The translations under genes were made by a program, and so were the position numbers. Under the pieces are notes generated by a model, which saw only the letters and a list, made by a program, of their open reading frames with translations, searched no databases and was not told the DNA's origin. 53,735 nt of DNA from a bacterium (GTDB lineage Bacteria; Babelota; Babeliae; Babelales; RVW-14): the NCBI GenBank assembly GCA_023249935.1, contig JAHFBQ010000001.1, positions 1 through 53,735 of the forward strand, written 5' to 3'. Below, piece by piece: positions 6,418 to 53,656 of the stretch. Within the stretch, counting starts at the first letter, position 1, and each line of letters begins with the position of its first letter.

Positions 6418-7712
6418 TGGCTTAACTTTCTATACAGGCTTACTCCTAGTGGTGATCCTATGCCATCAGCAATCTGTTCTTGCTCTAGGTGTGTTCGAGC
6501 AACCCATACTTGCATTCTTTGATTGGTAACAACTCCTTGGACTGTTGCATAGAGTATAAATACCGCAAAAAATAAATATTTTGATCGTTGAGTTAGATTT
6601 GAGCTTAAAAAGCCAATTAGCAGCGCAAAACAGAGTGTTGGTAGGTATAAATAGCGGCTGCAATGACAAAGTAATAATGATGGCCAGCTGAGGAGGATGA
6701 GTCCGCAGGTGAGTACTGCAAGATAGTTTTTATAAGCATTTTGTCTCCACGTGCTGACTACAAAAATTCCAAGTGCTACCAATGCAGAAAGTTTGATTAA
6801 GGTATATCCCTTAGGTAACCAATGGAGACCAATCATATCCATAAACCAGGCAACCCAGTCGAAAAACTTGAGATTTATGGTTTGCAATAAGCTGTGATTG
6901 TTTTGGGTGAAGTTTTTTATACCAATGCATTGAACTGAGGTTGAAAATGGGTGTGCCCATAGACGGAGCCCCATGTAGGCGGCGATGGGAATGAGGAAGA
7001 GAACGGTGGATTTGAAGACTTGTTTTAAGTTTCGTTCCTCAAAAAACACGAATAATCCAACAAGAACTGGTAACACAATCAATGTTTCTCGAAGTAGCAG
7101 CGTGATAAAAAAAAGAACTAAGAAACCAATCAAGGTCGGTATCCATCGTCGTCGATACCATAACAAAAAAAATAATACCATGATACAAAGAAGTCCTGTC
7201 TCAAGGCTATTTTGAACATAGCATTGCCAAAAGAAATAATCTTTTAAATTGGTGTGTAATCCCCAGAAAAGAGACAGGGGTATGGCACAGAGTGGGCCGC
7301 TATACATTGTTACTACATTGAGAATAGTAAGTGTGGTGATTGTGTGCAGGGTTGTATGTACTAAGTGAAAGTAATAGGCATTCATACCAAAAAATTTATA
7401 TTCGGTGCCCATGATGAGCAAAACAAGTGGGCGATAGAGTGTTTCAAGAAAATTTTTCTTCTCAACCGTCTCCTTGTCAAGCATGGTTCCGGCGCAGGTG
7501 ATCATGTCGCTGTTGCTGAAAATAGCTTTTATGTCGTGTAAAGAGTTATAACGACCATTGTAAGTGAATCCATAATCATCAGCATGGAACCCAATATTTG
7601 TATGCTTGGCTCCCATGAAATAAAAAACTATGCTCGCAACAATGAGATTAGCGAGGAGAAGTAATATTCTATTAAGGGACTTGCTTTCGCCCGAGTATTT
7701 TAAATTTTGCAT
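6414..7712 (-). CDS. GT-C-fold membrane glycosyltransferase-like protein, PMT/TMTC-like paralog (short C-terminus)
   Basis: Motifs GFHADDYG, LYRPLVLLIMG, FFWQCYVQNSLETG, LLRETL, DMIGLHWLPKGY and SRYLYLP. The start is uncertain (ATG 7712 or 7742). Either choice overlaps the upstream gene end at 7672. Confidence 0.65.
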   Translation of the reverse strand: MQNLKYSGESKSLNRILLLLANLIVASIVFYFMGAKHTNIGFHADDYGFTYNGRYNSLHDIKAIFSNSDMITCAGTMLDKETVEKKNFLETLYRPLVLLIMGTEYKFFGMNAYYFHLVHTTLHTITTLTILNVVTMYSGPLCAIPLSLFWGLHTNLKDYFFWQCYVQNSLETGLLCIMVLFFLLWYRRRWIPTLIGFLVLFFITLLLRETLIVLPVLVGLFVFFEERNLKQVFKSTVLFLIPIAAYMGLRLWAHPFSTSVQCIGIKNFTQNNHSLLQTINLKFFDWVAWFMDMIGLHWLPKGYTLIKLSALVALGIFVVSTWRQNAYKNYLAVLTCGLILLSWPSLLLCHCSRYLYLPTLCFALLIGFLSSNLTQRSKYLFFAVFILYATVQGVVTNQRMQVWVARTHLEQEQIADGIGSPLGVSLYRKLSQ

Positions 7713-9318
7713 GAGCGTAATCCCAAGTAATGAACCATACATTGTTACTGAAACGTTCTATGTCTACAGCTGTAGCGTTTTTTTTCTCGCAATGAAGCAA
7801 TTCTAATTCCTGTGCGTTGCTTAGTTCAATTGTTATGCTATTGTTGTGTATCATTTGTATTACAGCGGTTTTATCTGAACGAGGAATTGCGCGCGCGTGA
7901 TCCTGTCGAGGCATTCTTATTGCCGGACCAGATTGATATACAAAATATGATTCGACAGGTTTGTCATCCAAAAACCAGACAGCTTGCGCGGTTCCCATAT
8001 CGAACCAATGAGTTGGAAGACCTATAAAACAGAGCGGTTCACGTTGCCAGCCAGCTTCAGGGAGATCTTGAGTTACTAAGGTGCGTGTGCTTGTATCAAG
8101 CCAATGTAAGGCGAATTCACGTTCTTTCATATTGGCAAAAACATAGCAGGCGTTAGTTGCAATGTAGAAGAGAGTGAGAACACAAAACAAGTTTTTCTTT
8201 GAGGAGATACCCTGTAGAAGTAGTATCAGTGTAACGATTATCCACGGTAGTGCCATGTACATGTATCGTTGCTGATAATGCATAAGTAGTCCAGGCCAAC
8301 TGAACATGATGGTTGAAATAAAACAGAAGAGAATCATTTTTTTGTGTTTGCTTTTGAAAAATAAAATAGCAAGTACTATGATAATGACGAACAGCAGGCA
8401 GCCGTTGGCGATGCGATGGCCCTTTGGCAACCAGGTAAGGCCAAGAATGTCATAGAGGTAGGTAAGAAACTGCATGCTGCGGGAAATCTGTTTTGTGATA
8501 AATGATTGCCATGAGAGTGTGAATCCCAAAGTGGTTGTATTGCTTGCGACAAAAGGCATACAGTCAAGTCGAATCAAGCAGTAGCCAAGTGCTGTAAAGA
8601 TAAAACCTAACGATGCTTTGCATGCTAGCCACAAAGAGTTACGTGTAATTTTATTGGTATACACAAGTGTTGCTAAAAACACCCAAGCACACAAAATGAT
8701 ACTTGCCTCTTTGAGGAGTAGATTGAGGAAAAAAAGCGCTATTGTGCCCAGGTACCAGTGCAACCGCCGCGTCTGTAGCCATCGATAAAAGCAGATAAAA
8801 ATGAGTCCTAGAAAAAAAAGTTCTATAAAATAGGTCTGTGCGCTGATCCAACCAAGCCAGTTTTGCAAACTTGGGTGGAATCCGAAAAACAATGCTGCAA
8901 GTAACGATGCTGTAATGTCAAAAAAGTTGCGCATAATTAAAAAAAATAGTCCGGTATTGAGTGCGTGCAAAATAATGGTAACTAAAAAATAACCATACGC
9001 TTGAGTGCCAAAAAGTAAGGTTTGTGGCCAGTAGTATACAAACGATAGAGGGCGATAGAGGCCCTGTAAAAAAGAACCTCGATCTTGGCCAGATCCTGAA
9101 GGATGATTGATGCTCTCCATATTGCCTTCGGTAAACAAATTTTTTAGATCAGCAAAACTTTGAAGTTTGCTATGTAAAATATTTGCCCAATCATCTGTCT
9201 TGAAACCCCATTTAGTGAATGGGATGCCGAGAATCAGAATTATAGTAGCAATAATTAGAAGAGATATAATCCAATCTTGTTGCCGATCATTTTTTAAGAT
9301 ATGCATAGTGATTTCCAT
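7672..9318 (-). CDS. GT-C-fold membrane glycosyltransferase-like protein, PMT/TMTC-like paralog (long form)
   Basis: 548 aa. Motifs WGFKTDDWANI, LYRPLSF...FGTQAYGYF...LHALN, LLKEAS, DILGLTWLPKGH and QQRYMYMALPW. The C-terminal soluble domain ends FITWDYAHAKFKIL. Confidence 0.7.
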   Translation of the reverse strand: MEITMHILKNDRQQDWIISLLIIATIILILGIPFTKWGFKTDDWANILHSKLQSFADLKNLFTEGNMESINHPSGSGQDRGSFLQGLYRPLSFVYYWPQTLLFGTQAYGYFLVTIILHALNTGLFFLIMRNFFDITASLLAALFFGFHPSLQNWLGWISAQTYFIELFFLGLIFICFYRWLQTRRLHWYLGTIALFFLNLLLKEASIILCAWVFLATLVYTNKITRNSLWLACKASLGFIFTALGYCLIRLDCMPFVASNTTTLGFTLSWQSFITKQISRSMQFLTYLYDILGLTWLPKGHRIANGCLLFVIIIVLAILFFKSKHKKMILFCFISTIMFSWPGLLMHYQQRYMYMALPWIIVTLILLLQGISSKKNLFCVLTLFYIATNACYVFANMKEREFALHWLDTSTRTLVTQDLPEAGWQREPLCFIGLPTHWFDMGTAQAVWFLDDKPVESYFVYQSGPAIRMPRQDHARAIPRSDKTAVIQMIHNNSITIELSNAQELELLHCEKKNATAVDIERFSNNVWFITWDYAHAKFKILGRKQVP

Positions 9319-10273
9319 GAAGATGTTGATTTGGCGTTACACCAACAAGCTCGTTAACGACAAACATTGGGCGGCGCTTTAATTCTTGAAATACTTTGCT
9401 TAGGTAGATGCCAAGTACACCAAGTGCCAAAAAGTTACAGGCAAACAAAAAAAGAATTGCCAGCATAAGCGATGTCCAACCAGTCATAACAACAAGTCCA
9501 AATATTTTCATGATAAGCGCTGTTAGGGCGCCAAGAATACACAGTGCAATAACTCCTAGTGCGCCAAATACGAGGATGTACATCGGTGCGGTAGAGAATG
9601 AGATTATATTTTCAAGCGCAAAAATAGTCAGTTTTGTGTAGTTATACTTTGATTCTCCAGTTGCTCGACTACGACGAATAAAAGGCACAGATTTTTTCGG
9701 TAGCCCAGACCAATAGATGAGGCCGCGGACAAATACTTGGTTTTCAGGGAGGAGCTTAAAAGTATCAATAGCGCGTTGGCTGAGTAAGCAAAAATCGCCA
9801 ACATTTCTTGGCATATCGATCTTGGTTAGTTTCTTGAACAGAGGATAGAAAAGGTTGGAGGTAAATTTTTTGAGCCAAGATTCATTGAGTCGTTTAGTGC
9901 GTTGGCCGAAGACGATATCATAGCCCTCGAGAAAATGTTTTTCGAAATCAATAATAAGGTCTGCTGGATCTTGTCTGTCAGCATCGATGAGTACTACCGC
10001 GTTGCCTCGAGCATGATGAATGCCAGCGTACGTTGCATTTTCATGTCCAAAATTTCTTATGAATGAAATAATTTTAACGCGGCTATCTCCAGCGGCTAAT
10101 TTTTTTAAAATATCGAGAGATCCGTCCCAGCTGCCGTCGTTAACAAAAATAAGCTCGGTGGTTGCAAAGTGCGACAACTTGCCGAGTACTGATGATAGTT
10201 CGGCGTATAACGGTAATAAATTGTGTTCTTCGTTGAGCAGTGGAATAACAATTGAAAGCAACGGTGCTTGCAT
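9287..10273 (-). CDS. GT2 polyprenyl-phosphate sugar synthase (GtrB/ArnC/DPM1-like)
   Basis: Motifs LSIVIPLLNEE, FVNDGSWDGS and IDADRQDP. Two C-terminal hydrophobic helices are present, as in bactoprenol-phosphate glycosyltransferases. A purine-rich RBS lies before ATG 10273. Confidence 0.8.
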   Translation of the reverse strand: MQAPLLSIVIPLLNEEHNLLPLYAELSSVLGKLSHFATTELIFVNDGSWDGSLDILKKLAAGDSRVKIISFIRNFGHENATYAGIHHARGNAVVLIDADRQDPADLIIDFEKHFLEGYDIVFGQRTKRLNESWLKKFTSNLFYPLFKKLTKIDMPRNVGDFCLLSQRAIDTFKLLPENQVFVRGLIYWSGLPKKSVPFIRRSRATGESKYNYTKLTIFALENIISFSTAPMYILVFGALGVIALCILGALTALIMKIFGLVVMTGWTSLMLAILFLFACNFLALGVLGIYLSKVFQELKRRPMFVVNELVGVTPNQHLHGNHYAYLKK

Positions 10274-10330
10274 AAAACTCTCTCTTTCTCAAGGCGGCGG
10301 CTACTCTCGAATCTAGTCTATGAGTGAATT

Positions 10331-11386
10331 TTATACAAGGAGAAGTATTGCCACTACGTTGAAAAAGAATGAAGCATAAATAGGAATGATGAGGCTTTTG
10401 ATGACACTGCGCACATCAGCCTCACCAGTATTTTCGTAAAGAAGTCCAAGTGTAGCCATAAAGGCTGGTAGTGATGTGTAGATAAATGCCGGGTGTATTT
10501 TAATAAAAATTTGGGGGAGAAGATAGGTTATTACGGCTAGTAATAGGAGGCCTGCTTGGCGGCGCTTGGTTGTATGTGCAATGAGTCCTATTAAACTTGA
10601 AGCCCAAAATAATAGAAACGCATAACGAAGCCATTGGTGTGAGCTAGGGATCCATTCAAGTCCTAGTAGTGCAACAAATGTGTCGTTGATGTTAAGCAGT
10701 GTAGCTACAACTGAGATGGAAATATTGCTGAGCACAACGGTCAATTGTGCAATAAGATAAGTAAGAAAAAGTAAGCAGCATTGATTTGTGGGTAGCGGCC
10801 AAAAATAAGCTGCAGCTAAAGTAAGTATTGCGCTACCAAGCCAAATGTTGATTGGTGTCCAACAAAGGATAGCAACGCTTAGAGCAATTAAGCGATACGT
10901 TGATGAGGGTGTTTTTGTACAAATAAATTTTGCAGCAATGATGCTGAGTAGTACTAGTGTGCATTCAAGAACTTGAGGGAAATACTCAACTTTTCCAAAC
11001 CAGCTTAAATGACTTGGATGAATACCACTATACCAGCATACCCAGAGCACCATGAGTTTAGAGAGGTATGGCCGGGCAATGTACAAAAAAAGAGCGATAT
11101 TAAGTGTATGTATGCCAATGACTAAAAAACTTGCTGGTAGGGATAAGGGGTCTTGTGCTAGGTTGAACCACGAGCTTACTGTGAGTAGAATTTGATCTTG
11201 AGAAAAAATTGCTGGTAAGTGAAGCGGCGGTTGTTTTTGAACAAGTAATGTCCAGAAAAGAAATACTGGTACCGTAGCGGCAATAAAAAGTAGCGTGACT
11301 GGTAATGCCTCGACTGAGTTGTATACAAAGTCAGAGCATTGAATCCAAGCTCTGAGAAACGTTTTTTTGACAGTTTTTTTATTCAT
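10331..11386 (-). CDS. Divergent, probably non-catalytic member of the same GT-C paralog family (membrane core only)
   Basis: 351-aa multi-pass protein. It keeps the family motif ALLGLEWIPSSH (compare DLIGIKWIPSGF). The first-loop DD motif is replaced by SQDQIL, the YRPL block is degenerate, and there is no C-terminal domain. Confidence 0.6.
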   Translation of the reverse strand: MNKKTVKKTFLRAWIQCSDFVYNSVEALPVTLLFIAATVPVFLFWTLLVQKQPPLHLPAIFSQDQILLTVSSWFNLAQDPLSLPASFLVIGIHTLNIALFLYIARPYLSKLMVLWVCWYSGIHPSHLSWFGKVEYFPQVLECTLVLLSIIAAKFICTKTPSSTYRLIALSVAILCWTPINIWLGSAILTLAAAYFWPLPTNQCCLLFLTYLIAQLTVVLSNISISVVATLLNINDTFVALLGLEWIPSSHQWLRYAFLLFWASSLIGLIAHTTKRRQAGLLLLAVITYLLPQIFIKIHPAFIYTSLPAFMATLGLLYENTGEADVRSVIKSLIIPIYASFFFNVVAILLLV

Positions 11387-13716: not shown

Positions 13717-13929
13717 TAATTCTCTCCATCTCAATGTGAAATTGCTTACTAACTGAAAGTTAGCAGGTTTTTCTAGGCATTCAAGTAGATTGTAATTGCT
13801 GAATATTTTGCCGGGTATATCTAAAACCCTTTACATCTGTAAAAGATGTGCAATCTTTGCTCTAGTAAAAAGAGGAAGGAGGCGCAGTGTGTTCTAAGAT
13901 GTAGTGCCATCATTAAAAAGCTTACTCAG

Positions 13930-16900
13930 ATGAAATATACTCGATATCTTCTGCTCATCGTTCTTCTTTTCAATAACAATCAAATGTATGCCGGGCTGGT
14001 TGCAGGAACTAACATTGCGACAAATGGTCAGTCAGTAGCAATAGAAAATCTTTTGCGAGGTGATTTTGTTGTTGGGTATGACTTAAAAACACAAGTGTAC
14101 CCTGTGATAGCGGTAACGGCTGTGCAGTTGCATAGGGCTGTGGTGACGTATGCGATTGCAACTGATCGTGGCGTAATTGTAGTGACAGCAGATCAATTAC
14201 TCTTCGATGTTGTTGGTAAAAAGTTTGTAACAGCTGATCAGTGGTCTACGATGTGTATCTTTTTGACTAAAGATATGCAGCAGCTGCCGACGCGAGAAAT
14301 AAAAATCGATAGTGCCGTTGCAGCAGATTGCTATGATGTATCGTTGGAGCAGCCATATCTTTTTTTTGCATCTGATGCGCAAGTTTTGATGCATAACAAT
14401 CCGCTTGTTCTAGCGGTTCCGCTGACGCTTGCAGCTGTTGAGCTGGCTCCTCAGCTTATAAACTTATGCATGATGCTTGAAAATGCTCACAGCAAAGCAG
14501 CGGTTGCTGTGCGAAGAGCGCAAGCGCTGACTCAGCCAGTAGTTCCAACGCCGATATTGTCCGAACAAGTTGCAAAACAGCCTGCGCAGCAAATGAGAAT
14601 AGTACAGGTTTCACAAGCTACATCTCAAAAAAATAATCAATCAATACCTCGTCATGAAGTGCAAGCGGTACAACCTATTCTTTCAGTTGCGAAATCATCA
14701 AAGAGTAATGAATTATTTGTTTCGCAGCCAACACAAGGCTACAAATTTTCAGATGAAGCTGTACAGCGGGCAAAGTCGATAGATGTAAAGCTCTTACAAA
14801 ATCCCATCATGTATAACGATCGTCATTCAGAAATAAGTGTAACTGGATCGATTAATGGAGATGTGGTCTGCTCTAATGAATCTCAATCGAGAGGATATCT
14901 TCATATCAACCTCAACACTGAGCGAAACAACGAACGAGTCCAGGAAGCGAGAGATCGAGATCGGTGGGCGAGAAGATCGGGCAAGAGGCTGATTATCAAA
15001 GGAAACCAACATTATTTTACACCGGCTTGGTTTCTTGAGAATGCTCAAGCTTTGGCCGAACAAACAGGAATGTCGCTAGATGACGTTCTGTTTACTAATT
15101 TTGAAAATTTTCAATACCCAAACTACTTGCAAGTGTTGCACCATCGGCGCAACTATGATCAAAAGATTCTGGAGCTGCGAGATTTGTTGAGACAGGAAGA
15201 AAAGGGGTGGTTTTCATCAACTACAGAAGGCAAAAAATTAAACAGAAGATTTTGCTCAGGAGAAGGATTTAAGTTTTTCCACGGCAGTGATGAGGTGAAG
15301 TTATCGGAGCTGATTGAACGGTTAGCAAAAAAAGTAGAAGCGAGGCAAGAAGATGAACATAAAAAATACCTCGCCTGGCAAGCAAAGCAGGCGGAAGAAG
15401 CAGAAGTTGCAAGGCAGCAGGCCTTGTTTGCAGAACGAATTGTACGAGCGAAAAGCTGCTACAATCGAGTAATTGCCGAGCAACAACTTGAGGTAGCGGC
15501 TCACAGCGGCTTGTATGAGAAGTACGAAGAAATTGTGGTTCATGGCAGATTATATCGCAGCATAGATGAACCTAAGGCATTTTCTCACGTGTTTAAATCT
15601 GTACAAAACAACGACTACAGCGAAAGCTACAAAAAGTTTTTAGCTGATCGAAACATGCCTATCTTGCGCCAGAGCAGGAATGATGCGGCCAAAGCAATTG
15701 ATGAAATCATTCGTGAAATGTATCAAGCAGATCAACATTTTGGTTATTTATACGATGTTGTTCATGCGCACAGCATCGCGCTTCGGCTAATTTCTGTTGC
15801 CGATCGAGCTGAGCAATACAACGACTCTCCTATGATGTCAGCAGCGACTGCGCAGCTGCTTGAAGCGGCGCGCGGATTTGTACGTTCTGCTGAGCAACTT
15901 GGTGAGTACTATGTGACAAGCAACATGGCCGCGCATCATACAACAACTACAATTAATCATCTGATTCATAAGGTGTTGATTCCGCTGGAAAGGCATGCTG
16001 CAACGGTTGCTGGCAATAAAGTATCGTTACCGCAAGAACTTGCACGCAGTACAGTATGCCCGGTAACAGTTTTAGCCAATCTGTACAAAAATCCTGAAAA
16101 CAAAGAGCTTGCTCAGCAGTGTAAAGCGGTACTGGCAGATCTTTTGGCAGAAGAAGAGTTTATTGTGCAAGCAGCAGCAAAGGGTAGCGTTCAAGTCCCA
16201 ACAGAAACGCCGCTTGTCAAACTTGCAACGCAAGCGGGAAACCTTGGCAGTTGTACGGCAGCACAAGCACCGCCATACATACCATCAGCAACCATGGCAC
16301 GGGGTCGTCAAAAAGAATTTTTCCGCAAGGTTTCCATATCTAGCAACCAGGGAGATCGAGAAGATATATCGCCAGAAGCTTTTGTGAATGGTGCGATCAT
16401 TGATTGTGCTCATAAGCATAAGGAGTCATTTGAGGATAAACGTCAAGCGGTTATCAGCGACATAAAAGAGTATGAAAAAACACTGTTTGATCTAACGCCG
16501 CGATCTGTGAGCATCGACGAAGCAGCGGCACAGCAATTGCAAAACCATGCCCCATCGTGGATAACGGCGACTATGACTGGTAACGGGCAAGTTGCCGTTG
16601 CCGCTCATTGCTATCGGCTCGCATCATACGATGCATCAACAAGAGCATGGCATTTTATTGTTGATGCAGATGAACCAGCCCTATATGATCGAATGGTTCC
16701 ATATGTTCATGAGTTTGTCAAAGCTGAAGAGAAACGCGAGCTTGATGAGCTGCGCAAACTCACAGCATTCTGGCCCCAAGAGATACGCTATGCATTCAAG
16801 ATCGGTTGGCCAGTGCGCAAAGATCAGCCACAAGAAAATTCGGGTAAAAGAATATGGCAAGCGCAAGCAGCGGGCATACGCCACGGGAACTTAGCAAGAA

Positions 16901-17724
16901 TCTTCGGAGAGTATTCATACTCATTTCAAGCGCTTGATTTTATGCTTGCCAACAATCTTGCACCATCACGTATTGTACATATTCTGCGTAATGGAGAGTA
17001 CCCCAAAGCTCATCGTTCCGACCGCGAGCTACGCAGCTTAGACGGTATCGTAGTGGTTTTCGAGAAAGATACAAAAACCATTTGCGGCATTGGTACGATC
17101 AATGAACTTGATCTACTCAATGAGTATCCATCAAGAAAAACACACCAATGTATTCCCGACCAAGAGCCAGCGTCTTCTTCAGGTGTCTGTCTTCCTGAAA
17201 AAAATGCTGAAGAGTCATCCTGTGGGGGCAGCTGCGACAATACCGACACGACAAATACACATGGTTTATGCGGCAGCAGTTATAACAAAGAACATGAATT
17301 TCCCTCATCTTCGCCAAACGAAGGCTTACCAGAACCAGAAACTAAACCCTGCGCTTGGAGCCAACAGCCGCAGCTCCCGGGATTTGATGAGGATGGTGTG
17401 GTGGAAGTGCTTGCTGATGGAAGTAATCAAGTTTTGCCTGAGACAACTTCTTCTGAAGGTGATGATGGCAAAATAATATATAAGCACGGTTTTAAGTATC
17501 ATCCAAGAATAAGACAAAGAGGATTGCAGGACCCTAAGGCACACAATTTTCCATACTCATTTGACGATATTATTTTAAAAACTAACCCAATAAAACAAAA
17601 AGATGGCTCCTTATTGTACATATTAGAAGGAATTTTGAATGAAAAGCGCGGAGTGTTCGAAATCGCTATTAATACAGAAACTAAAACCATTTTTCATAGA
17701 ACATTTAGGGGATCAAAAAAATGA
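13930..17724 (+). CDS. Secreted polymorphic-toxin-like protein: signal peptide, N-terminal Hint-like domain, long mostly helical body, conserved pre-toxin region, variable C-terminal domain (CT1)
   Basis: Signal peptide MKYTRYLLLIVLLFNNNQMYA at ATG 13930 (the track start at 13846 adds a Cys/Lys-rich extension). Hint blocks lie at 13993-14397. The 3' constant region is repeated twice downstream. An immunity-like ORF overlaps the stop. Confidence 0.75.
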   Translation: MKYTRYLLLIVLLFNNNQMYAGLVAGTNIATNGQSVAIENLLRGDFVVGYDLKTQVYPVIAVTAVQLHRAVVTYAIATDRGVIVVTADQLLFDVVGKKFVTADQWSTMCIFLTKDMQQLPTREIKIDSAVAADCYDVSLEQPYLFFASDAQVLMHNNPLVLAVPLTLAAVELAPQLINLCMMLENAHSKAAVAVRRAQALTQPVVPTPILSEQVAKQPAQQMRIVQVSQATSQKNNQSIPRHEVQAVQPILSVAKSSKSNELFVSQPTQGYKFSDEAVQRAKSIDVKLLQNPIMYNDRHSEISVTGSINGDVVCSNESQSRGYLHINLNTERNNERVQEARDRDRWARRSGKRLIIKGNQHYFTPAWFLENAQALAEQTGMSLDDVLFTNFENFQYPNYLQVLHHRRNYDQKILELRDLLRQEEKGWFSSTTEGKKLNRRFCSGEGFKFFHGSDEVKLSELIERLAKKVEARQEDEHKKYLAWQAKQAEEAEVARQQALFAERIVRAKSCYNRVIAEQQLEVAAHSGLYEKYEEIVVHGRLYRSIDEPKAFSHVFKSVQNNDYSESYKKFLADRNMPILRQSRNDAAKAIDEIIREMYQADQHFGYLYDVVHAHSIALRLISVADRAEQYNDSPMMSAATAQLLEAARGFVRSAEQLGEYYVTSNMAAHHTTTTINHLIHKVLIPLERHAATVAGNKVSLPQELARSTVCPVTVLANLYKNPENKELAQQCKAVLADLLAEEEFIVQAAAKGSVQVPTETPLVKLATQAGNLGSCTAAQAPPYIPSATMARGRQKEFFRKVSISSNQGDREDISPEAFVNGAIIDCAHKHKESFEDKRQAVISDIKEYEKTLFDLTPRSVSIDEAAAQQLQNHAPSWITATMTGNGQVAVAAHCYRLASYDASTRAWHFIVDADEPALYDRMVPYVHEFVKAEEKRELDELRKLTAFWPQEIRYAFKIGWPVRKDQPQENSGKRIWQAQAAGIRHGNLARIFGEYSYSFQALDFMLANNLAPSRIVHILRNGEYPKAHRSDRELRSLDGIVVVFEKDTKTICGIGTINELDLLNEYPSRKTHQCIPDQEPASSSGVCLPEKNAEESSCGGSCDNTDTTNTHGLCGSSYNKEHEFPSSSPNEGLPEPETKPCAWSQQPQLPGFDEDGVVEVLADGSNQVLPETTSSEGDDGKIIYKHGFKYHPRIRQRGLQDPKAHNFPYSFDDIILKTNPIKQKDGSLLYILEGILNEKRGVFEIAINTETKTIFHRTFRGSKK
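13993..14397 (+). other. Degenerate Hint (intein/hedgehog-type) domain, Gly at position 1, terminal His-Asn retained
   Basis: G-LVAGTNIATNGQSVAIENLLRGDFVVGYD ... VIVVTADQLLFDVVGKKFVTADQW ... CYDVSLEQPYLFFASDAQVLMHN. Confidence 0.65.
17009..17396 (+). repeat. Pre-toxin handle, copy A (inside the full-length toxin gene)
   Basis: Manual alignment to 19221-19605 (copy C). This includes about 160 nt (17051-17209 vs 19263-19421) with only 3 mismatches. The 3' part also aligns to 18059-18240 (copy B). Confidence 0.9.
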
Positions 17725-18023
17725 AATATTTAACGTTAATGCCTGATTATACTGGGTCTTGTATTAGGGATGATTTTGAAGGTCAAATTGAACCAACTCT
17801 TTTGGGATTGCCACAAAGCTTTCTTAGAAGGTTATATACATGGCAAGATTTATATAAAAAAATAATTCCACTAGACCAAGATGAGCGTGAAAAAAAAATT
17901 CATGAAATAGAAAGATTGGACCAAGAAGGTCTTTCTCTTGCCAAGGAGTTAAGACAACTGATACCTGGTGGTGCTAAAGTAAAATACTTTAGTGAAGGGC
18001 TTGGGAAAATTATTCACAGCTAA
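17721..18023 (+). CDS. Putative immunity protein for CT1
   Basis: 100-aa ORF whose ATG overlaps the toxin stop (ATGA, 17721-17724). The call rests on position only; no family recognised. Confidence 0.6.
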   Translation: MKYLTLMPDYTGSCIRDDFEGQIEPTLLGLPQSFLRRLYTWQDLYKKIIPLDQDEREKKIHEIERLDQEGLSLAKELRQLIPGGAKVKYFSEGLGKIIHS

Positions 18024-18058
18024 ATTAATAACTATCCAATAATTCATCTGCTATCAAA

Positions 18059-18240
18059 CCATCATGCGGTGCTAGCAACAGTAATACTGACACGACAAAT
18101 ACACATGGTTCATGCGGCAATGGCAGCATGAGAGAATACGACCACCTCTCATCTTCACCAGACGAAGGCTTGCCAGAGCCAAAAACTCAACCCTGTGATT
18201 GGAGCCAACAGCCGCAGATCCCGGGATTTGATGAGGATGA
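18059..18240 (+). repeat. Pre-toxin handle, copy B (3' part only)
   Basis: Aligns to about 17214-17396 of copy A and encodes ...TDTTNTHGSCG...SSSPDEGLPEPKTQPCDWSQQPQIPGFDED. The frame is open from 18032, directly after the immunity-1 stop region. Confidence 0.85.
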
Positions 18241-18694
18241 AGAGGTTTGGGAGAAAGGTTCTCTGGAAATCGAAAAAGAACTTCCTAATAGCAAAGATAA
18301 TCAACAAGAGAGTGATAATAGTGGTTTGATTCCAGATGATAATAAGCTAGCTAGAGGGCGAGCTATAAATGAAAATGGAAGGGTTTTTGAGAAGTTTCTT
18401 GAAAAAGAACTTGGAGCTCGTGGAAGTTTTAGAGTCACAAGCAAAATAAACGGGACTCGAGAATTTGATGGAGCTGTAGGAAATGTTTGGTATGAGGCAA
18501 AAAGCGGCGAATATTGGAATTTATTGCTATCAAATGAGAAAAAGTTAGCAAAATTTAAATCTGATATGGGAAAAGGTTTGCAAATTACTCGCGAATATGG
18601 AGTAGCTTATCAACTTCACTCGAACACCCCTATTCCAGAAATTATAAAGAAATGGTTAATCAAAATGGAGATTCGATTTATTGAATGGTTATAG
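18128..18694 (+). CDS. Orphan toxin cassette 2: handle remnant fused to a PD-(D/E)xK-like (restriction-endonuclease-fold) candidate nuclease domain
   Basis: Homology to the big gene extends upstream of the ATG to 18032. Downstream of PGFDED comes a new domain containing REFDGAVGNVWYEAKSG (D-x8-E-x-K). Confidence 0.6.
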   Translation: MREYDHLSSSPDEGLPEPKTQPCDWSQQPQIPGFDEDEEVWEKGSLEIEKELPNSKDNQQESDNSGLIPDDNKLARGRAINENGRVFEKFLEKELGARGSFRVTSKINGTREFDGAVGNVWYEAKSGEYWNLLLSNEKKLAKFKSDMGKGLQITREYGVAYQLHSNTPIPEIIKKWLIKMEIRFIEWL

Positions 18695-18727
18695 TATTGT
18701 TCATCTCATGAAAATGAAAAGGTTGTT

Positions 18728-19210
18728 ATGTCAGTTTCAGCATCTTTTGATTTACGAGTTGTACGATCTTCAGGGAAAGAGCTTGCTTCTCAGATTGAGA
18801 TTATCAAAGCTCTAGCAAATTATGGATGGTCATTTTTTCGTGGCGAATATGTTTGCTATTTGCCTTATGGTGATAACGATAATTTTAATTGGACCGCTGA
18901 GATTATCAGTTTTGAATCGTTTTTAAAAATATTGGAACAAAAAGAAAAGAGATCCGAACTCATTGGAGTTTCAATGACATGGAAAAATTCGAACATTGAT
19001 GGAGAATTATTAATTTGGGGAGCTGAAGAGGCGAGAAAGAATAAAATTCACACACCAATATCATTCAATATGGCAGCAAATCGGAAACGATTTATTTCTC
19101 AAAATAATTATGAAATTACCGATGTTAATTGGTATATGGAAAAATTACTTCCTGCGCTTAATCAGAATGGTATGTATGTTGAGTATTTTTCTTATGAGGA
19201 ATATGACTAA
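18728..19210 (+). CDS. Putative immunity protein for orphan toxin 2
   Basis: 160-aa ORF 33 nt downstream of the orphan toxin, same strand, with AAAAGG before the ATG. The call rests on position only. Confidence 0.55.
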   Translation: MSVSASFDLRVVRSSGKELASQIEIIKALANYGWSFFRGEYVCYLPYGDNDNFNWTAEIISFESFLKILEQKEKRSELIGVSMTWKNSNIDGELLIWGAEEARKNKIHTPISFNMAANRKRFISQNNYEITDVNWYMEKLLPALNQNGMYVEYFSYEEYD

Positions 19211-19651
19211 CACTTTAAAACTCATCGCCACGACCGCGAGCTGCGCAGCCTAGACGATATTGTAGTGGTTTTCGAGAAAGATACAAAAACCATTTGCGGC
19301 ATTGATACGATCAATGAACTTGATCTACTCAATGAGTATCCATCAAGAAAGACACACCAATGTATTCCCGCCCAAGAGCCAGCGTCTTCTTCAGGTGTCT
19401 GTCTTCCTGAAAAAAATGCTGCCGAGCCTTCACGTGGCAGCGACGGCGACGATACTAACGCGACAAATATGCATGGTTCATGTGGCAGTACAAGAGAATG
19501 CGACCTCATCTCATCTTCACCAAACGAAGGATTGCCAGAGCCAAAAAATCAACCCTGTGGTTGGAGCAAACAGCCGCAGCTCCCAGGATTTGATGGGGAT
19601 GAGGAGGTGGGGAGCAATGTTGATCTGCAGCCAACGCTCTCTTTTGTATGA
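19211..19651 (+). pseudogene. Orphan handle copy C without a toxin domain (remnant)
   Basis: The frame is open directly after the immunity-2 stop: HFKTHRHDRELRSLDDIVVVFEKDTKTICGIDTINELDLL...WSKQPQLPGFDGDEEV, then 15 unrelated codons and a stop. There is no upstream start context apart from GTG 19265. Confidence 0.7.
19221..19605 (+). repeat. Pre-toxin handle, copy C
   Basis: See copy A. This is the longest and best-conserved duplicate. Confidence 0.9.
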
Positions 19652-20154
19652 GGAACTTTATGAACGGTGACTTTAAAGTCGCCGACCTCGATTGTTTGAC
19701 CTGGTGCTAGTTCAACAAATTTTACACATTTAGTTACCGTTGCTCCGGCAAATGCGAGATTAAGAAATGTTTTTACGTGATTTTCAATGCCTACTGGACC
19801 ATAAATAGTAAACGGGCTTGGTGCAGCAATATCTTCTCCAAGGTCATGGGACCACTGGTTTACATGTAACCACGTCAAAATATCTGGAAGGTCGCCAATA
19901 TGATCAAAATGAAAATGAGTATAAAAAGCGCCGTGTAGCGTGGTTACATCGACATGTTTTGTTGCTGCCTGCAGAATGCCAGGACCAGCATCGACAAAAA
20001 CATGTGTGTTGCCGGCGCTTACGAGGTTACCAGGAGCTTTGCGGTGTGGTTGTGGCATGCATGTGCCAGAACCAAGGATAGTAAGCTGCGCAGAATAAGC
20101 GGTTTGTTGTAGGGTGATAGAGAGTAGAGAAAAGAGTAGCTGCTTGATTGACAT
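19549..20154 (-). CDS. MBL-fold metallo-hydrolase with N-terminal signal-like sequence, apparently 3'-truncated (likely pseudogene)
   Basis: Motifs LTILGSGTCMP, HFHFDHIGD (HxHxDH) and VPHTKESVG (motif-3 His). The frame then runs into the reverse complement of handle copy C (...STLLPTSSSPSNPGSCGCLLQPQG*). The later Asp and His motifs are missing. Strong RBS AAGGGAGG. Confidence 0.6.
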   Translation of the reverse strand: MSIKQLLFSLLSITLQQTAYSAQLTILGSGTCMPQPHRKAPGNLVSAGNTHVFVDAGPGILQAATKHVDVTTLHGAFYTHFHFDHIGDLPDILTWLHVNQWSHDLGEDIAAPSPFTIYGPVGIENHVKTFLNLAFAGATVTKCVKFVELAPGQTIEVGDFKVTVHKVPHTKESVGCRSTLLPTSSSPSNPGSCGCLLQPQG

Positions 20155-20166
20155 GGGCGTCCTCCC

Positions 20167-20724
20167 TTAATCAAGTTCTTTATCTTCAATTTCTTCTTTA
20201 GTTGTAAGTCCACTGATAGCAAAAGCTCGTTTGAGAGCCATGGCTTCAGCAACTTTGAGGATCATAGCGTTGGTGTACTGCTGCCAGATTGGAGCATCTT
20301 TTTTGTAATATTCTTTTATGCTGACAAAGACGGTGGTTGCCTTGTCTCTGTCCTTACGAAATACGCTGCAATAGGCGCCTGACAGTTTGCTTTTATCAAA
20401 CAGCAGATGTTCCGGGCCATAAGAAATATGGAGGCTGCCATCATCTCGTTTGGTCAAAATGTCATTTTGATAAACAACATCACTCTCGATGCCATTAAAA
20501 TTTTCATTAAGATTGGCTATTTTTAGATAGCCATCTCTGCTAGTCAAAATCGTTGTTTTGCTGCCGTACTTAATAAAATAGATCTCTTTTTTTAACGGAT
20601 CTAGATTGTACTCTTTGCAGAGATACATAAAGGTCTTAAATTCGTCATCGGTGGCTCCAGGAGCCACCGATTTGCGTAGAAGTTCTTCGTTTTCATGAGC
20701 TGTTGTACCGGTTGTTTTTGCCAT
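20167..20724 (-). CDS. RecT/Bet-family single-strand annealing protein (short form)
   Basis: GATDDEFKTFMYLCKEYNLDPLKKEIYFI, SRDGYLKIA and ...IWQQYTNAMILKVAEAMALKRAFAISGLTTKEEI match my recollection of the phage Bet/RecT signature blocks. Confidence 0.7.
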   Translation of the reverse strand: MAKTTGTTAHENEELLRKSVAPGATDDEFKTFMYLCKEYNLDPLKKEIYFIKYGSKTTILTSRDGYLKIANLNENFNGIESDVVYQNDILTKRDDGSLHISYGPEHLLFDKSKLSGAYCSVFRKDRDKATTVFVSIKEYYKKDAPIWQQYTNAMILKVAEAMALKRAFAISGLTTKEEIEDKELD

Positions 20725-24686: not shown

Positions 24687-26285
24687 ATGAGGCTGCAAAA
24701 GCTGCAGATGTTGTTGGGGATTTTACTTTTCGTTATTGCTATGGGTGTACTCGCACTTCCCTACTATCCTTGGGGTTTCATGCGGGATGATTATGGATTT
24801 TTAGCTCACGCCGCTGCTTATGTTCACGGCTGGTCTGAGTTTTTTAAGCCGCACAATGTTGTCGACTTCGTCTATTCATCAGCAATCAATCCGCCATTTT
24901 CTTGGAGTGGGTCTTTTTACCGGCCAATTCAATTTATTCATTTTGCTCTCGAATATCTTTTTTTTGGTACCAATGCCTATGCGTATCTGATATGGATAGT
25001 GTTTATGCATGCTGGAATAGTAGTAAGCTTATTTAGCATAGGACGTACATTTTTTTCTGCGCAGCGAGCATTTTTTGTTGCTTTGATAATTCTTCTCCAT
25101 CCGATGCTTATGTTGTGGATGGGGTGCTTTACTCAGCAAATTTACATTATTGATGTGGTTTATTTTCTGAGTATAACAGCGCTTCTGAAAAAATTTTGCG
25201 ATACCAACCATTGGCGATGGTATATGGCATCATGCTTATTGTTTTTTGTAGCTCTTTTTGCAAAAGAAACGTTGATAACTTATCCAGGGTGGGTTTTTAT
25301 AGCTCTTATATGGTATCTATTACAATGTGATCAATTAAAAAAATGGTATAACCAAGTTTTTCCTGCACTAAAAATAGCTAGTGGATACGTATTTGTAGGC
25401 ATTTTCTATCTCGCCTCAAGGTATCTGATTTTTGCGGGAGCGACTGATGGTGTGATAAAATTTTTTGGCTTCTCAAGCTGGCAGGCATTTGTTGCCAGGC
25501 AATCTGAGCGATTTTTTGATCTCGTAACCTATGTATGCAACTATCTTTATATTGGTATGGTGCCTGGAGGTAACTGGTTGCGCAAAATGGTGCTGGTTAT
25601 GTTGATTATTGGTCTTCTTGCATATCCCTTTATTCGTAAACGACAACTCCTGTTACTTTTTTTTCTTGGGTTTTCAATGCTGGCCGTAACGTGGCCAGCT
25701 TGGTTACTTTACTACCATACACGCTATGCCTATGCTGGATTGATATTTTTGTATTTCATCTTCTTGTTTGCCATTGATTTTTATTTGAATAAATTTGTGA
25801 GGCTACGTCGCATATCACCATTACTAGGATTTTGCGTAGTTGCTGTGCTTGGATGCAATGCAATCAGTATGCAACGAATAAAAAATAGTGTGCTTTCTAC
25901 GGTGACGGGAGCGGCGCGTGAACTTGCTGTCCAGGTGCATGAAACGGTGCGGCCGCTTATCTTTATAGGGTTGCCGCACTGTTGGTTTGCATCGGGAGCA
26001 GGACAACTAGTTAAACTTTTCTATCCACAAGATAAGCGGTTAGTAGATGTTGGAATTTTGCTCTTTGGTGGCGAAGAGTTTGGGCTTTTAAGCCAACATG
26101 ATGTCCGTGTTGAACGACGAGGAGATCTGGTTGATATCGGTCTTGCTGCGAATGATAACCTTAGCTTCTTGAATCACCAAAAAGAAGAACGTTTTGTGAG
26201 TATAAAACTCTCCTGGGAGTTGTTGACAGATAATGCAATCATTATCACCTGGGATTATAAGCGACACGGATTTAGGATTATTTAA
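24687..26285 (+). CDS. GT-C-fold membrane glycosyltransferase-like protein, PMT/TMTC-like paralog (long form)
   Basis: Motifs WGFMRDDYGFL, FYRPIQF...FGTNAYAYL, FAKETL, YIGMVPGGNW and HTRYAYAG. The C-terminal domain ends IIITWDYKRHGFRII. Confidence 0.7.
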   Translation: MRLQKLQMLLGILLFVIAMGVLALPYYPWGFMRDDYGFLAHAAAYVHGWSEFFKPHNVVDFVYSSAINPPFSWSGSFYRPIQFIHFALEYLFFGTNAYAYLIWIVFMHAGIVVSLFSIGRTFFSAQRAFFVALIILLHPMLMLWMGCFTQQIYIIDVVYFLSITALLKKFCDTNHWRWYMASCLLFFVALFAKETLITYPGWVFIALIWYLLQCDQLKKWYNQVFPALKIASGYVFVGIFYLASRYLIFAGATDGVIKFFGFSSWQAFVARQSERFFDLVTYVCNYLYIGMVPGGNWLRKMVLVMLIIGLLAYPFIRKRQLLLLFFLGFSMLAVTWPAWLLYYHTRYAYAGLIFLYFIFLFAIDFYLNKFVRLRRISPLLGFCVVAVLGCNAISMQRIKNSVLSTVTGAARELAVQVHETVRPLIFIGLPHCWFASGAGQLVKLFYPQDKRLVDVGILLFGGEEFGLLSQHDVRVERRGDLVDIGLAANDNLSFLNHQKEERFVSIKLSWELLTDNAIIITWDYKRHGFRII

Positions 26286-26286
26286 T

Positions 26287-27897
26287 ATGAATAATATAAA
26301 ACAGAGAAATATGCTGATCGTAATGGTGACGGTGTTTCTTATTGCTTCCTTAGTTGTTCTTGCACTTCCCTATACCTCCTGGGGTTTTATTACCGATGAT
26401 TTTGGGCTTGTGTGGCATAGCAGGGTTGAATCGCTGTGCGAACTGGGTAAGTTTTTTACTGAGATGGGGCTGCATACGTTTATGCAACCAATAAATTACA
26501 TGCCGTCCGAACAATCGTTTTTTGCTGTATTGTACCGTCCGTTGCTTTATGTTTTTTATGGGATTCAATATTTATTGTTTGGTTTTTCTGCCTATGGGTA
26601 CATGATAGTTTCGGCATTACTCCATGGCATCAATGCTGTTCTCGTCTGGTTAATTTTTAGAAAATATTTTTCAAAAACAATCGCCGCACTTGGTGCCGGG
26701 TACTTCTTATTTCATCTTTCAATGCTCAATTGGTTTGGTTGGGTGACAGCACAACAACATTTGTTAGCGCTGTTTTTTTCGCTGCTAGTATTTATTTGTT
26801 ATCAGTGTTTTATAGATTCTCAGCGTAAAATATACCTATTTTCGGCAATAGCCCTAGTTGCTTGCTCGTTGTTAACTCGTGAGACACTCATCGTATTGCC
26901 TGTCTGGGTAGTTTTTGCGTTGGTGTGGCATTGGCGTACGGCACAACATAAGTTTCTTCTGCTTGTTACCGCTGCATTGCCTGTTGCAGGATATTTTTGC
27001 TGGCGTATTAGTCAATTTCCCCTCAAGGCATCGAACAGTGATTTAACGTGGGTTACTCGAGGGGGCTTTGCTTTTTTCACGTTCCTTAGAGAACAGTTTT
27101 TAAATTATGTTACGTGGCTTGTTGATTTGACCAATCTTGGGTTTGTTCCCGGCGGTAATCGATTGCGCAAAGGGACGTTGATCATCATGGTAGTCATGCT
27201 GCTTGCCTACTTGTTTTGGAACTGTCGCAAGAAATCAACGGTGTTGTTTTTGCTAGCAAGTACTATTGCTTTTGCTTGGCCTTCAGTGATTCGCTTTTAT
27301 ACCTCGCGTTTTATGTACGAGGCATTACCCTTTTTTATTGCAGCAATTTTGCTGCTCATTTTTGAAAATGATATTTCATTCAGGCCGAAAGCGTTGATCT
27401 TCGGTGCTCTGATAGCATTTAATGGCATGATGTTCCCAAATTTTTTATCAGCGCGTGAAAAAACGTTGAAAGCTATTAACATTGCAGTTCACGATCTTGT
27501 CATGCAGCTACCAGAAAATTCGAAGTCGATTGTTTTTGTTGGTCTACCGTTTGGATGGTTTTGTACAAGTGTTGCTCAGGCTTGCTACATGACTGGGTTG
27601 TCAACATCGGTGCCGGTGTACTATGACAAGCAGACTTTTGTGTGGAGTGAGCTCGAGCCAGCCGGTATTTCTCCTGAGATTCAGATTCGGCGGATAAGTA
27701 AGTCGGTATTGGAGGTCACTCTTAACAAGCCTGTAATATTCGCATTTGGTGATCGTGGTACAAACTTTGGCATCAAAGAGTGGCGAGACGAAGATGATGC
27801 GACCGTGCTTCATTGGGATATGATAAACGATCGCTTTGAAACGCCAGACGTGGTAATCACCTGGGATTATGAAAAAAACTGTTTTCGGCTGCTATAA
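26287..27897 (+). CDS. GT-C-fold membrane glycosyltransferase-like protein, PMT/TMTC-like paralog (long form)
   Basis: Motifs WGFITDDFGLV, LYRPLLY...FGFSAYGYM..LLHGIN, LTRETL, NLGFVPGGNR and TSRFMYEALPFF. The C-terminus is VVITWDYEKNCFRLL. ATG 26287 lies 1 nt after the upstream stop. Confidence 0.7.
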   Translation: MNNIKQRNMLIVMVTVFLIASLVVLALPYTSWGFITDDFGLVWHSRVESLCELGKFFTEMGLHTFMQPINYMPSEQSFFAVLYRPLLYVFYGIQYLLFGFSAYGYMIVSALLHGINAVLVWLIFRKYFSKTIAALGAGYFLFHLSMLNWFGWVTAQQHLLALFFSLLVFICYQCFIDSQRKIYLFSAIALVACSLLTRETLIVLPVWVVFALVWHWRTAQHKFLLLVTAALPVAGYFCWRISQFPLKASNSDLTWVTRGGFAFFTFLREQFLNYVTWLVDLTNLGFVPGGNRLRKGTLIIMVVMLLAYLFWNCRKKSTVLFLLASTIAFAWPSVIRFYTSRFMYEALPFFIAAILLLIFENDISFRPKALIFGALIAFNGMMFPNFLSAREKTLKAINIAVHDLVMQLPENSKSIVFVGLPFGWFCTSVAQACYMTGLSTSVPVYYDKQTFVWSELEPAGISPEIQIRRISKSVLEVTLNKPVIFAFGDRGTNFGIKEWRDEDDATVLHWDMINDRFETPDVVITWDYEKNCFRLL

Positions 27898-35500: not shown

Positions 35501-35615
35501 CTGCTCATCCTGATGAGCAGCCCTTCGACACCGCTCATCCTGAGGAGTGACGAAGTCGCGTCTCGAAGGACATGTGCGGTGCTCAGGATAAACTTCAGCT
35601 ACGTCTCGAAGGATA
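35501..35615. repeat. Cluster of the same GC-rich repeat family (20-nt perfect palindrome CTGCTCATCCTGATGAGCAG plus two direct units ending GTCTCGAAGGA)
   Basis: CCGCTCATCCTGAGGAGTGACGAAGTCGCGTCTCGAAGGACAT (35531-35573) aligns with the reverse complement of 34644-34690. A second CGTCTCGAAGGA lies at 35602-35613. Confidence 0.8.
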
Positions 35616-52837: not shown

Positions 52838-53656
52838 TTACTGAATTGTGTTGCCTGATTCAACAAGTGTCTTGTTGGTACGACCAACATAGAGTGCTAC
52901 GAGAATCCAAACACCAATGACACCAAGAGATACGATTGAGCCGTAGAACATAAGGCTTGTCATGCTGGTGAACATTGCGTTAACGCTTGAACCAGTAGCT
53001 TTAGCTGAGCGTCCGCCGAAACCGTCAATCCAACCTTTAGCTTTGAATTTAACGTCTTTGCTTGTTGGAATGTACATGATTTCTTTACAAGGATTGTTAA
53101 GCGCATAGCTCAAGCCCTTGATTGCAACCATGGCGATGAAAAGTGCCCACAGCATAGGGAATGCCATAACGTAGATAACTACGCAAGCAACAGTTGCTGG
53201 GAACATTACCAAGCAGAAGGTTAGGCCGAAGCGACGGATGAAGAAGCTTGTACCAATGAGTGCAAATACAAGAGCCAAGCCGTTTGCGGCGATACCGAAG
53301 AATGACAAGAATTCAGCAACTTTTTCTGCTGAACCATATGCTTCATCAGCCAAAAACTTCATTTGATAGTCAAGAATAGTTCCGATGATTTCATACAGCG
53401 TTGCGATGCCAAGAATACCCATGAGGTAAGGCTTAGAGAACAATAATTTCAAGCCTTCGATTGGGCCAGTAGGCTTCTTGCTGCTTTTTTCGTGGACATA
53501 AGGGTATTTTTTAACAAAAAAGAAAATAAGTATTGGAACAAGGAAAATAGAGATAGCTGCTATACCGAAAAGAACAGGAAGGCCCCACAGGGTAGCTGTT
53601 CTGTTAACAAGGAACGGTCCAGCCATTGAGCCGATTTGTGCGCCGCCTATGATCAA
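52838..53656 (-). CDS. TLC-family ATP/ADP (nucleotide) translocase, C-terminal two-thirds
   Basis: YALIIGGAQIGSMAG, KPYLMGILGIATLYEIIGTILDYQMK and SYALNNPCKEIMYIPTSKDVKFKAKGWIDGFGGRSAKATG resemble Chlamydia/Rickettsia Npt/Tlc blocks. The track start is a TTG just after a frame break. Confidence 0.75.
   Translation of the reverse strand: MIIGGAQIGSMAGPFLVNRTATLWGLPVLFGIAAISIFLVPILIFFFVKKYPYVHEKSSKKPTGPIEGLKLLFSKPYLMGILGIATLYEIIGTILDYQMKFLADEAYGSAEKVAEFLSFFGIAANGLALVFALIGTSFFIRRFGLTFCLVMFPATVACVVIYVMAFPMLWALFIAMVAIKGLSYALNNPCKEIMYIPTSKDVKFKAKGWIDGFGGRSAKATGSSVNAMFTSMTSLMFYGSIVSLGVIGVWILVALYVGRTNKTLVESGNTIQ

Follow-up and report, generated by a model that had tools for sequence, protein, structure and literature searches.

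The MafB/MafI islands of Neisseria encode Sec-dependent polymorphic toxins of the 'T2SS class' (type II secretion system), and a dedicated exporter in the outer membrane is not known for them (Jamet et al., 2015, PMC4287609). The autopeptidase of polymorphic toxins, PT-HINT (PF07591), has been described just before the toxin domain, whereas ZU5 or PrsW have been given as the processing peptidases at the N-terminus of such toxins (Zhang et al., 2012, PMC3482391). Here, a locus resembling the MafB/MafI islands is reported from a bacterium of the Babelota (Babeliae, Babelales, RVW-14; GenBank assembly GCA_023249935.1). It occupies positions 13,930 to 19,651 of contig JAHFBQ010000001.1, which is 53,735 nucleotides long and was analysed in full; it is called the window below. 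Judged from its sequence, it is a genuine polymorphic toxin locus with the defining features of such a system. Very probably, a Sec-dependent carrier protein ends in an expressed toxin tip (C-terminal domain CT1) with its antidote (Imm1), a second pair (CT2/Imm2) lies stored or displaced downstream, and a third copy (copy C) is a remnant, with tips exchanged by recombination at a repeated 'handle' and cassettes acquired horizontally.

The carrier is encoded by an open reading frame (ORF) at 13846/13930..17724, giving proteins of 1292 or 1264 amino acids, respectively; the start at 13930 is favoured by family alignments, and the 1264-residue version is an entry in a public protein collection. 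All parts of the locus lie on the + strand. The original prediction, made from the letters of the sequence, had proposed a long toxin ORF ending in a segment of about 110 residues, a 100-residue ORF starting inside its stop codon (ATGA), and two downstream recurrences, in frame, of the final 180-390 nucleotides of the constant part. Each of these elements is present, with coordinates that were exact or off by a few bases. The junction between the constant part and CT1 (17398..17724, with a conserved core at about 17476-17712) falls at 17397/17398; Imm1, the predicted antidote, occupies 17721..18023 (…AAAAAATGAAATAT…); and the recurrences lie at 18032-18240 and 19211-19606. The first recurrence, copy B, runs as anticipated into a domain with a D-x8-E-x-K motif (FDGAVGNVWYEAKSG), here termed CT2 (18241..18694, core at about 18365-18691), and then into a 160-residue ORF, the predicted antidote Imm2 (18728..19210).

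This layout resembles that of MafB/MafI in the predicted signal peptide, the constant N-terminal part, the variable toxin C-terminus and the antidote gene directly downstream, as well as in orphan tips that may or may not have a start codon and that precede an antidote gene in each case, and in the possible presence of a BIL (bacterial intein-like) domain. MafB/MafI is the closest system in function and layout. However, the locus in the window has no DUF1020 (MafB_N), with no Pfam hit at E<=1, and belongs to another host lineage. In addition, the MafB BIL domain lies at the constant/variable junction, whereas that of the window comes first after the signal peptide, without Cys1 and with a hydrophobic segment next to it. 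CdiA/CdiB systems likewise have variable C-terminal domains paired with immunity proteins and downstream orphan arrays, but the two-partner secretion domain, FHA repeats, VENN motif and nearby CdiB gene that mark them are absent here. Among the locus proteins, there is no Pfam hit to the PAAR, VgrG, LXG or WXG domains of type VI and type VII secretion system (T6SS/T7SS) effectors, and no PAAR string.

The last portion of the constant part (handle A, 17005..17397), which closes with a Cys-rich linker and PGFDED, is repeated far above chance. In a repeat search, 17005-17276 aligned with 19217-19488 at 89% identity, and 17277-17421 aligned with 18121-18265 and 19483-19627 at 71-83% identity. With the handle peptide as tblastn query, exactly three copies were found in the window, with E values of 3e-89, 1e-61 (copy C, at 77% identity) and 6e-25 (handle B), and a 20-mer of the handle occurs twice against zero occurrences expected from shuffles. 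The frame of handle B (18032..18240, the last 60 or so codons of the constant part) opens after TAATAA, three codons past the stop of the 100-residue ORF, and that of copy C (19211..19651) opens directly after the stop of the 160-residue ORF. In both cases, the stand-alone unit is thus prefixed, in frame, by the end of the constant part. An alignment of the three copies showed that DNA homology ends at …CCGGGATTTGATGAGGATG (PGFDED), beyond which the sequences are unrelated. Relative to handle A, the ratio of nonsynonymous to synonymous substitution rates (dN/dS) is 0.39 for handle B and 0.41 for copy C, values that rest on few sites.

Two orphan cassettes had been proposed downstream of the carrier. 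This holds for copy B, which comprises a tip and an antidote, but not for copy C, in which 132 codons homologous to 17005-17397 are followed by 15 unrelated codons and a stop; the latter is a handle remnant with neither toxin nor antidote. Base composition follows the same boundaries. The G+C content is 44.4% in the carrier body and 47-48% in the three handles (47.1% in handle A), with a contig mean of 41.9%, and it is 34.3% in CT1, 34.0% in Imm1, 35.5% in CT2 and 32.9% in Imm2. The switch coincides with the PGFDED junction, and this mosaic may be read as a sign of cassette acquisition.

Replacement of the tip is seen in a related genome, where the body is shared and the C-terminus differs, as the original prediction implied. 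The 757-residue protein P0105 matches the carrier over residues 7-473 (27% identity, E 1e-38) and has a similar Cys-containing PCAW linker (…SSPCAWDAHQAPP…), but ends in CT2 rather than CT1. On its contig (L009; Logan assembly of SRR24750919), the upstream genes encode proteins 58-80% identical to those of window genes at 1570-10261, and the two organisms are related; the carrier bodies, at 27% identity, would reflect either fast evolution or a paralogue. The CT2-tipped carrier of L009 is followed by an Imm2 homologue and then by a stand-alone Imm1 homologue without CT1 (10791-11090). Such an unpaired immunity gene would be expected in cells that encounter CT1 from neighbours, for example from the organism of the window. 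Further members of the family have Ntox35 or different tips at their ends, and a small ORF adjoins, and often overlaps, each of these genes. The constant part is therefore shared among proteins with unrelated C-terminal tips, namely P0105, the Ntox35 protein and other members.

The CT1 tip is found far outside this family. An exhaustive HMMER search with the carrier gave 312 matches at E<=1e-3, and among the 150 matches listed, all but about 10 align to the CT1 stretch. In nearly all of those that do, CT1 is the extreme C-terminus, on carrier proteins of 66-3637 amino acids. The long CT1 carriers tested are RHS-repeat proteins, one of which has a canonical PT-HINT directly before CT1, and in P0038 the Rhs DPxGL motif lies just upstream of CT1. 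These matches identify CT1 as a putative widespread C-terminal toxin module, many carriers of which are Rhs proteins, with the conserved motifs Y.YHPR.R.R, AHNFPYSFDD and IFHRTF. No Pfam or NCBIfam model covers it. In an AlphaFold2 (AF2) model, about 80 residues have a predicted local distance difference test (pLDDT) score above 70 and form helices followed by an antiparallel sheet. That CT1 could be a metal-independent RNase is a guess from this topology and the conserved His/Arg pattern. Structure searches leave it a guess: the RelE-like RNase MqsR ranked only 29th, with TM-scores of about 0.35-0.4.

Imm1 has no signal peptide and is the predicted cognate antidote of CT1, a pairing that is kept in an unrelated locus. 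In that locus (L002), a CT1-type orphan lies behind a RHS/Colicin_E5 protein of more than 3500 residues and is followed by an overlapping 101-residue ORF with 42% identity to Imm1 (E 8e-23). The stand-alone Imm1 homologue of L009 is 55% identical (E 2e-37). The window locus and Rhs systems thus have in common the presence of CT1 on many RHS proteins, CT1/Imm1-type orphans behind an Rhs gene, as in L002, and the same model of tip displacement. Unlike Rhs loci, however, the window locus has no RHS/YD repeats, no DPxGL or PxxDPxG core end and no association with PAAR or VgrG, and a Cys-rich linker with PGFDED at its end serves as the handle.

For CT2, a search with the C-terminal 120 or so residues of ORF 18128-18694 found 27 homologues besides the window copy. 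Residues E112, D114, E123 and K125 (REFDGA…WYEAKSG) are invariant in all 28 sequences, nine of which match Pfam PF15647 (Tox-REase-3; best E 2.3e-6). An AF2 model built on the homologue alignment reaches pLDDT above 90 for residues 80-188, and its top structural neighbours, AF1548, VC1899, Cdn1, EndoMS, Can2 and Card1, are all PD-(D/E)xK nucleases. Together, these results identify CT2 as a probable divergent relative of Tox-REase-3 and a predicted PD-(D/E)xK nuclease. It resembles that family in the [KR]ExD ... ExK pattern and the predicted PD-(D/E)xK fold, but falls below the model and has E-A-K-S-G in place of ExQxK. Searches of PDB sequences with CT1, CT2 and their profiles returned nothing.

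Imm2 is the predicted cognate antidote of CT2, and this pairing recurs in two loci. The ORF following the CT2-tipped carrier of L009 is 45% identical to Imm2 (6e-48), and locus L001 contains two CT2-type orphans, each followed by an ORF of about 150 residues, of which the one compared is 44% identical (3e-47). Unlike the partners of Tox-REase-3, Imm2 belongs to neither SUKH nor Imm7, and no Pfam model covers it. Neither antidote family, Imm1 or Imm2, is covered by a Pfam or NCBIfam model. A conserved downstream gene for a predicted immunity protein is thus found for CT1 in L002 and for CT2 in L001 and L009, and the predicted layout, in which a full-length toxin and its antidote precede orphan tip/antidote cassettes with a common handle, is backed by homologues outside the window.

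In the L001 locus (1814-10439; ENA ERZ4201063), the carrier is not homologous to the window body. It is an unrelated signal-peptide protein of 1001 residues, rich in charged, repetitive, possibly coiled-coil sequence, and has a handle of its own (LIEAAEIKQCLASKGVEEAT…). Behind it lie no fewer than five orphan cassettes, among them two that are Tox-REase-3-like, an EndoU and one with a Cys_rich_CPCC partner. It appears to represent another unclassified Sec-type polymorphic toxin family.

The N-terminus of the window carrier has the features of a predicted Sec signal peptide (13930..13992; MKYTRYLLLIVLLFNNNQMYA, ending before Gly22), as read from the sequence: a basic N-region, a hydrophobic core with its peak near residue 16 and a small residue before Gly22. 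Relatives begin with the same signal-peptide-like N-terminus, and the order at the start of family members is signal peptide, a domain of about 135 residues running from 'G-L-x-x-G-T' to 'FFSS.AQVLTHN', and a hydrophobic, Pro-containing stretch. The domain (residues 22-156; 13993..14397) can be identified as HINT/bacterial intein-like because the family profile and relatives match such domains. The profile (A3) aligns over its full length with the BIL structure 2LWY (positions 23-155 against 5-138, E 1.4e-15), and also matches the gp41-1 intein and, at 1e-10, the HINT domain from an ADP-ribosyltransferase toxin (6TMM/6Y75); the relative in L004 scores 31.8 bits, which exceeds the 27.7-bit cut-off of Pfam PT-HINT. 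The expectation of an unrecognised family free of hallmarks thus stood for the body and architecture, with YD/Rhs repeats, VENN and PAAR absent, but it failed at the N-terminus, where a PT-HINT/BIL domain is present.

This domain is homologous to PT-HINT and keeps the C-terminal His-Asn, with H155 and N156 invariant in nine of nine sequences. It differs in that position 1 is Gly rather than Cys and the block-B His is replaced by Gln in all members of alignment A3, so that neither the nucleophile (Cys, Ser or Thr at position 1) nor the block-B Thr-x-x-His is found. It also differs in position. Since PT-HINT has been described before the toxin domain, an N-terminal HINT is unusual: the domain spans residues 22-156 of 1264 and the toxin starts at about residue 1157, some 1000 residues away, and even in short relatives HINT is separated from the toxin by the hydrophobic segment plus 100 or more residues of linker. 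The segment itself (NPLVLAVPLTLAAVELAPQLINLCMMLENA; 14398..14487) follows His-Asn directly and has a Kyte-Doolittle peak of 1.9 at residues 161-174. Nearly all relatives examined have an equal or stronger peak (to 2.5) after the His-Asn, P0165 being the only one with none above the threshold used.

In established intein chemistry, a domain without Cys1 undergoes no N-terminal acyl shift, and a C-terminal His-Asn keeps the capacity for cleavage by Asn cyclisation. From this residue pattern, we infer that the HINT N-terminus would be generated by signal peptidase and that C-terminal Asn cyclisation is retained, making one cut between HINT and the hydrophobic segment. Such a single C-terminal self-cleavage, which would free a fragment consisting of the hydrophobic segment and the toxin, is the least certain part of the proposed mechanism and is more doubtful than probable. 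Speculatively, and with decidedly low probability, the signal peptide, the Cys-less HINT and the hydrophobic segment could form an undescribed self-processing delivery device, in which the cut after Asn156 unmasks a fusion-peptide-like hydrophobic N-terminus on the toxin fragment that drives its release from the membrane of the producer or target-cell entry.

The remainder of the constant body (14488..17004) consists of a P/Q-rich linker, a region in common with P0047 and P0105 (to about residue 506), a central part that is helical and, ahead of the handle, a domain at residues 828-1067 (the pre-handle domain). It has distant homologues in P0047 (31% identity over residues 97-506, E 1.5e-43), P0105 and P0165 (25% over residues 828-1067, E 2e-16). 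Both the N-terminal domain and the pre-handle domain are held in common with P0165, P0109, P0141 and P0162, and P0149 and P0151 are short members of the family. No Pfam, NCBIfam or PDB match was found for the carrier body, and Pfam and NCBIfam searches with the window toxin-locus proteins gave nothing above threshold. A word-indexed search with the full-length carrier returned the carrier itself only; this query is long and partly of low complexity, which probably crowded out short domain matches, and domain-wise and exhaustive searches did find relatives. The pre-handle domain (16411-17130) is weakly similar to DUF4258 (through P0165 residues 365-396, E 0.014) and could be a degenerate second toxin-like module.

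A second protein of this kind, of 256 residues and without a toxin, is encoded elsewhere in the window (35595-36365, - strand). It begins in the same way as the carrier, with a signal peptide, then a domain like HINT whose end reads LILVHN, then a hydrophobic stretch, and its homologue P0048 (41% identity over 86 residues, E 2e-14) ends in a CT1-type toxin. It can be placed as a putative paralogous carrier lineage whose tip was lost or never present. No cassette-like sequence was noticed among the ORFs directly downstream. The 'EYPSR' end of this ORF was considered as a link to the beginning of the handle linker and rejected, the likeness being at the protein level only, with no DNA match within three mismatches.

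In the proposed mechanism, the 1264-residue protein would be exported by means of its signal peptide, carrying a replaceable tip of about 110 residues (CT1), and the small cytoplasmic Imm1 would neutralise CT1 in the producer. CT2 and Imm2 would represent a second cassette, stored or displaced, followed by the handle-only remnant. Each of the two starts with 60-130 codons copied from the end of the constant part, and homologous recombination at these handles could swap the expressed tip; incoming low-GC cassettes would displace older tips downstream, with new ones supplied by horizontal transfer. The target would most likely be competing bacteria.

Several observations weigh against this reconstruction. 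At the locus, orphan B has no obvious ribosome-binding site, a promoter and terminator scan did no better than shuffles, and copy C is dead; with copy C dead and orphan B lacking expression signals, present-day recombination is conjectural. The HINT domain of the window, taken alone, stays below threshold at 18 bits (Pfam Hint_2, E 0.004; residues 22-156 of the carrier, P0001, against 2LWY, E 0.12). The hydrophobic segment, if it acted as a stop-transfer helix, would leave the toxin end in the cytoplasm, at odds with simple secretion, and no outer-membrane export component or other secretion genes were seen near the locus. As to the tips, structure searches with CT1 (PDB, viral models) gave no significant match, the window CT2 itself reaches no Pfam model, and the structural matches of CT2 are weak (E 0.04-0.4).

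In one rival account of the array, the handles arose from mis-joined reads of several strains. Short-read contigs of other samples do break within the repeats; such breaks are usual for short-read assemblies. The probability of such an artefact is nevertheless close to nil, because the three copies have diverged by 11-29% and are of unequal length, and because independent assemblies agree. The Logan assembly L005 (run SRR14366766) is 100% identical over 15913-19268, a span that takes in handle A with the CT1/Imm1 pair, handle B with the CT2/Imm2 pair and the beginning of copy C; two ENA contigs (L006 and a third contig) have the same gene order; and the unrelated loci L001 and L002 have the same layout. 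A rather unlikely but more substantial alternative, compatible with the preferred reading, is that only the leading toxin/antidote pair functions and that the copies behind it are inert relics of earlier tip replacements, in an array that has ceased to recombine. It would account for copy C, which breaks off 15 codons past the junction and lies against a truncated gene, and for handle B, which has no start codon before an ATG at 18128 and no clear expression signals. Relics would not be expected, however, to keep the CT2 and Imm2 ORFs intact with every family-invariant residue, or handles in frame with dN/dS of about 0.4, and Imm2 would still protect the cell whether or not CT2 is ever re-expressed.

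Other rivals concern the destination of the toxin. The contig ends in a fragment of a TLC ATP/ADP transporter gene (52838..53656, - strand; Pfam TLC PF03219, E 9.8e-13), as the original prediction had noted, which supports a host-dependent lifestyle, and the sole named relative of the carrier, which is also the only one in the one-genome-per-species GTDB data (scanned with a three-sequence alignment), is a Candidatus Babeliales (Dependentiae) metagenome-assembled genome (JBIIJF01). Given that some polymorphic-toxin-like proteins of intracellular bacteria are aimed at hosts (Zhang et al., 2012, PMC3482391), nuclease tips could be delivered into the eukaryotic host, with the downstream genes merely shielding the producer before export. 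This is unlikely: host-directed versions usually lack immunity genes (PMC3482391), whereas here both tips have conserved cognate partners; a stand-alone Imm1 without CT1, as in L009, is expected only if cells meet CT1 made by others; and the CT1 and CT2 families also occur in other bacteria, in their Rhs toxins and orphan arrays, among them the bee-gut Snodgrassella and Gilliamella. It is less likely still that the locus is a membrane-tethered addiction or toxin-antitoxin-like module, with the hydrophobic segment as a stop-transfer sequence, the toxin end in the cytoplasm and no delivery. The hydrophobic stretch after HINT in nearly all members examined and the lack of dedicated export genes nearby would fit such a module, but the window segment is weakly hydrophobic and contains Pro and Glu, and it is delivered toxins that are marked by variable tips on a constant carrier, by orphan cassettes with handles and by tips that Rhs proteins also carry.

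At the right boundary of the array lies a convergent ORF with a metallo-beta-lactamase fold (19549..20154, - strand), which matches only positions 2-116 of the 200-position Pfam profile Lactamase_B_2, and in which the last 30 or so codons read antisense to copy C. This ORF has probably been cut short where the array ends, and the abutment of the tipless copy C on this half-length ORF suggests a deletion at that end. Adjoining it is a short gene for a 185-residue RecT-family recombinase (20167-20724, - strand). Within the array, L006 (ENA ERZ27280021) is 99.9-100% identical to the window apart from a 102-nucleotide in-frame deletion in Imm2 (against window 18807-18897), flanked by an 11-nucleotide direct repeat, which suggests population variation in the antidote gene.

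Upstream, the locus is flanked by genes for glycosyltransferases and nucleotidyl transferases; on the downstream side lie those for RecT, an aldolase and a kinase. Five genes for paralogous membrane glycosyltransferases of the PMT_2 (GT-C) type (7672-9318, 26233-27897, 38205-39734, 39734-41116 and 44578-45909) and several GT2 and nucleotidyl-transferase genes place the toxin locus within a large envelope-glycosylation region. Four consecutive large ORFs (442-586 residues) at 1549-7742 on the - strand have no Pfam match; for two of them, 1549-3309 and 7672-9318, L009 encodes counterparts at 58-70% identity.

By its sequence features, the window carrier falls outside the MafB, Rhs, CdiA and T6SS/T7SS carrier families. 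It belongs to a small, rare and undescribed family from host-dependent bacteria, for which a scan of JGI metagenomes found only two more loci. In the full-text literature searched, no work was found that links Dependentiae to polymorphic toxins or immunity proteins, and among the top literature matches there was no link between Dependentiae or Babeliales and HINT, intein or Rhs. What is new is the architecture of the carrier and the lineage in which it occurs. Three families, moreover, are without a Pfam or NCBIfam model, although CT1, the toxin family among them, is widespread and Rhs-associated and the two antidote families are conserved.

The N-terminal HINT with only its C-terminal cleavage residues, together with the hydrophobic segment, offers a handle on the processing and delivery of Sec-only toxins. 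If the self-processing device were real, it would give host-dependent bacteria a way to fight competitors in a shared host, with no type V, VI or VII secretion (T5, T6 or T7) genes seen on the contig. More broadly, host-dependent bacteria that import ATP from their host have a complete polymorphic toxin/immunity system, together with evidence that tips are exchanged and, in a relative, that an immunity gene stands alone, and this suggests bacterium-versus-bacterium conflict in or around protist hosts.

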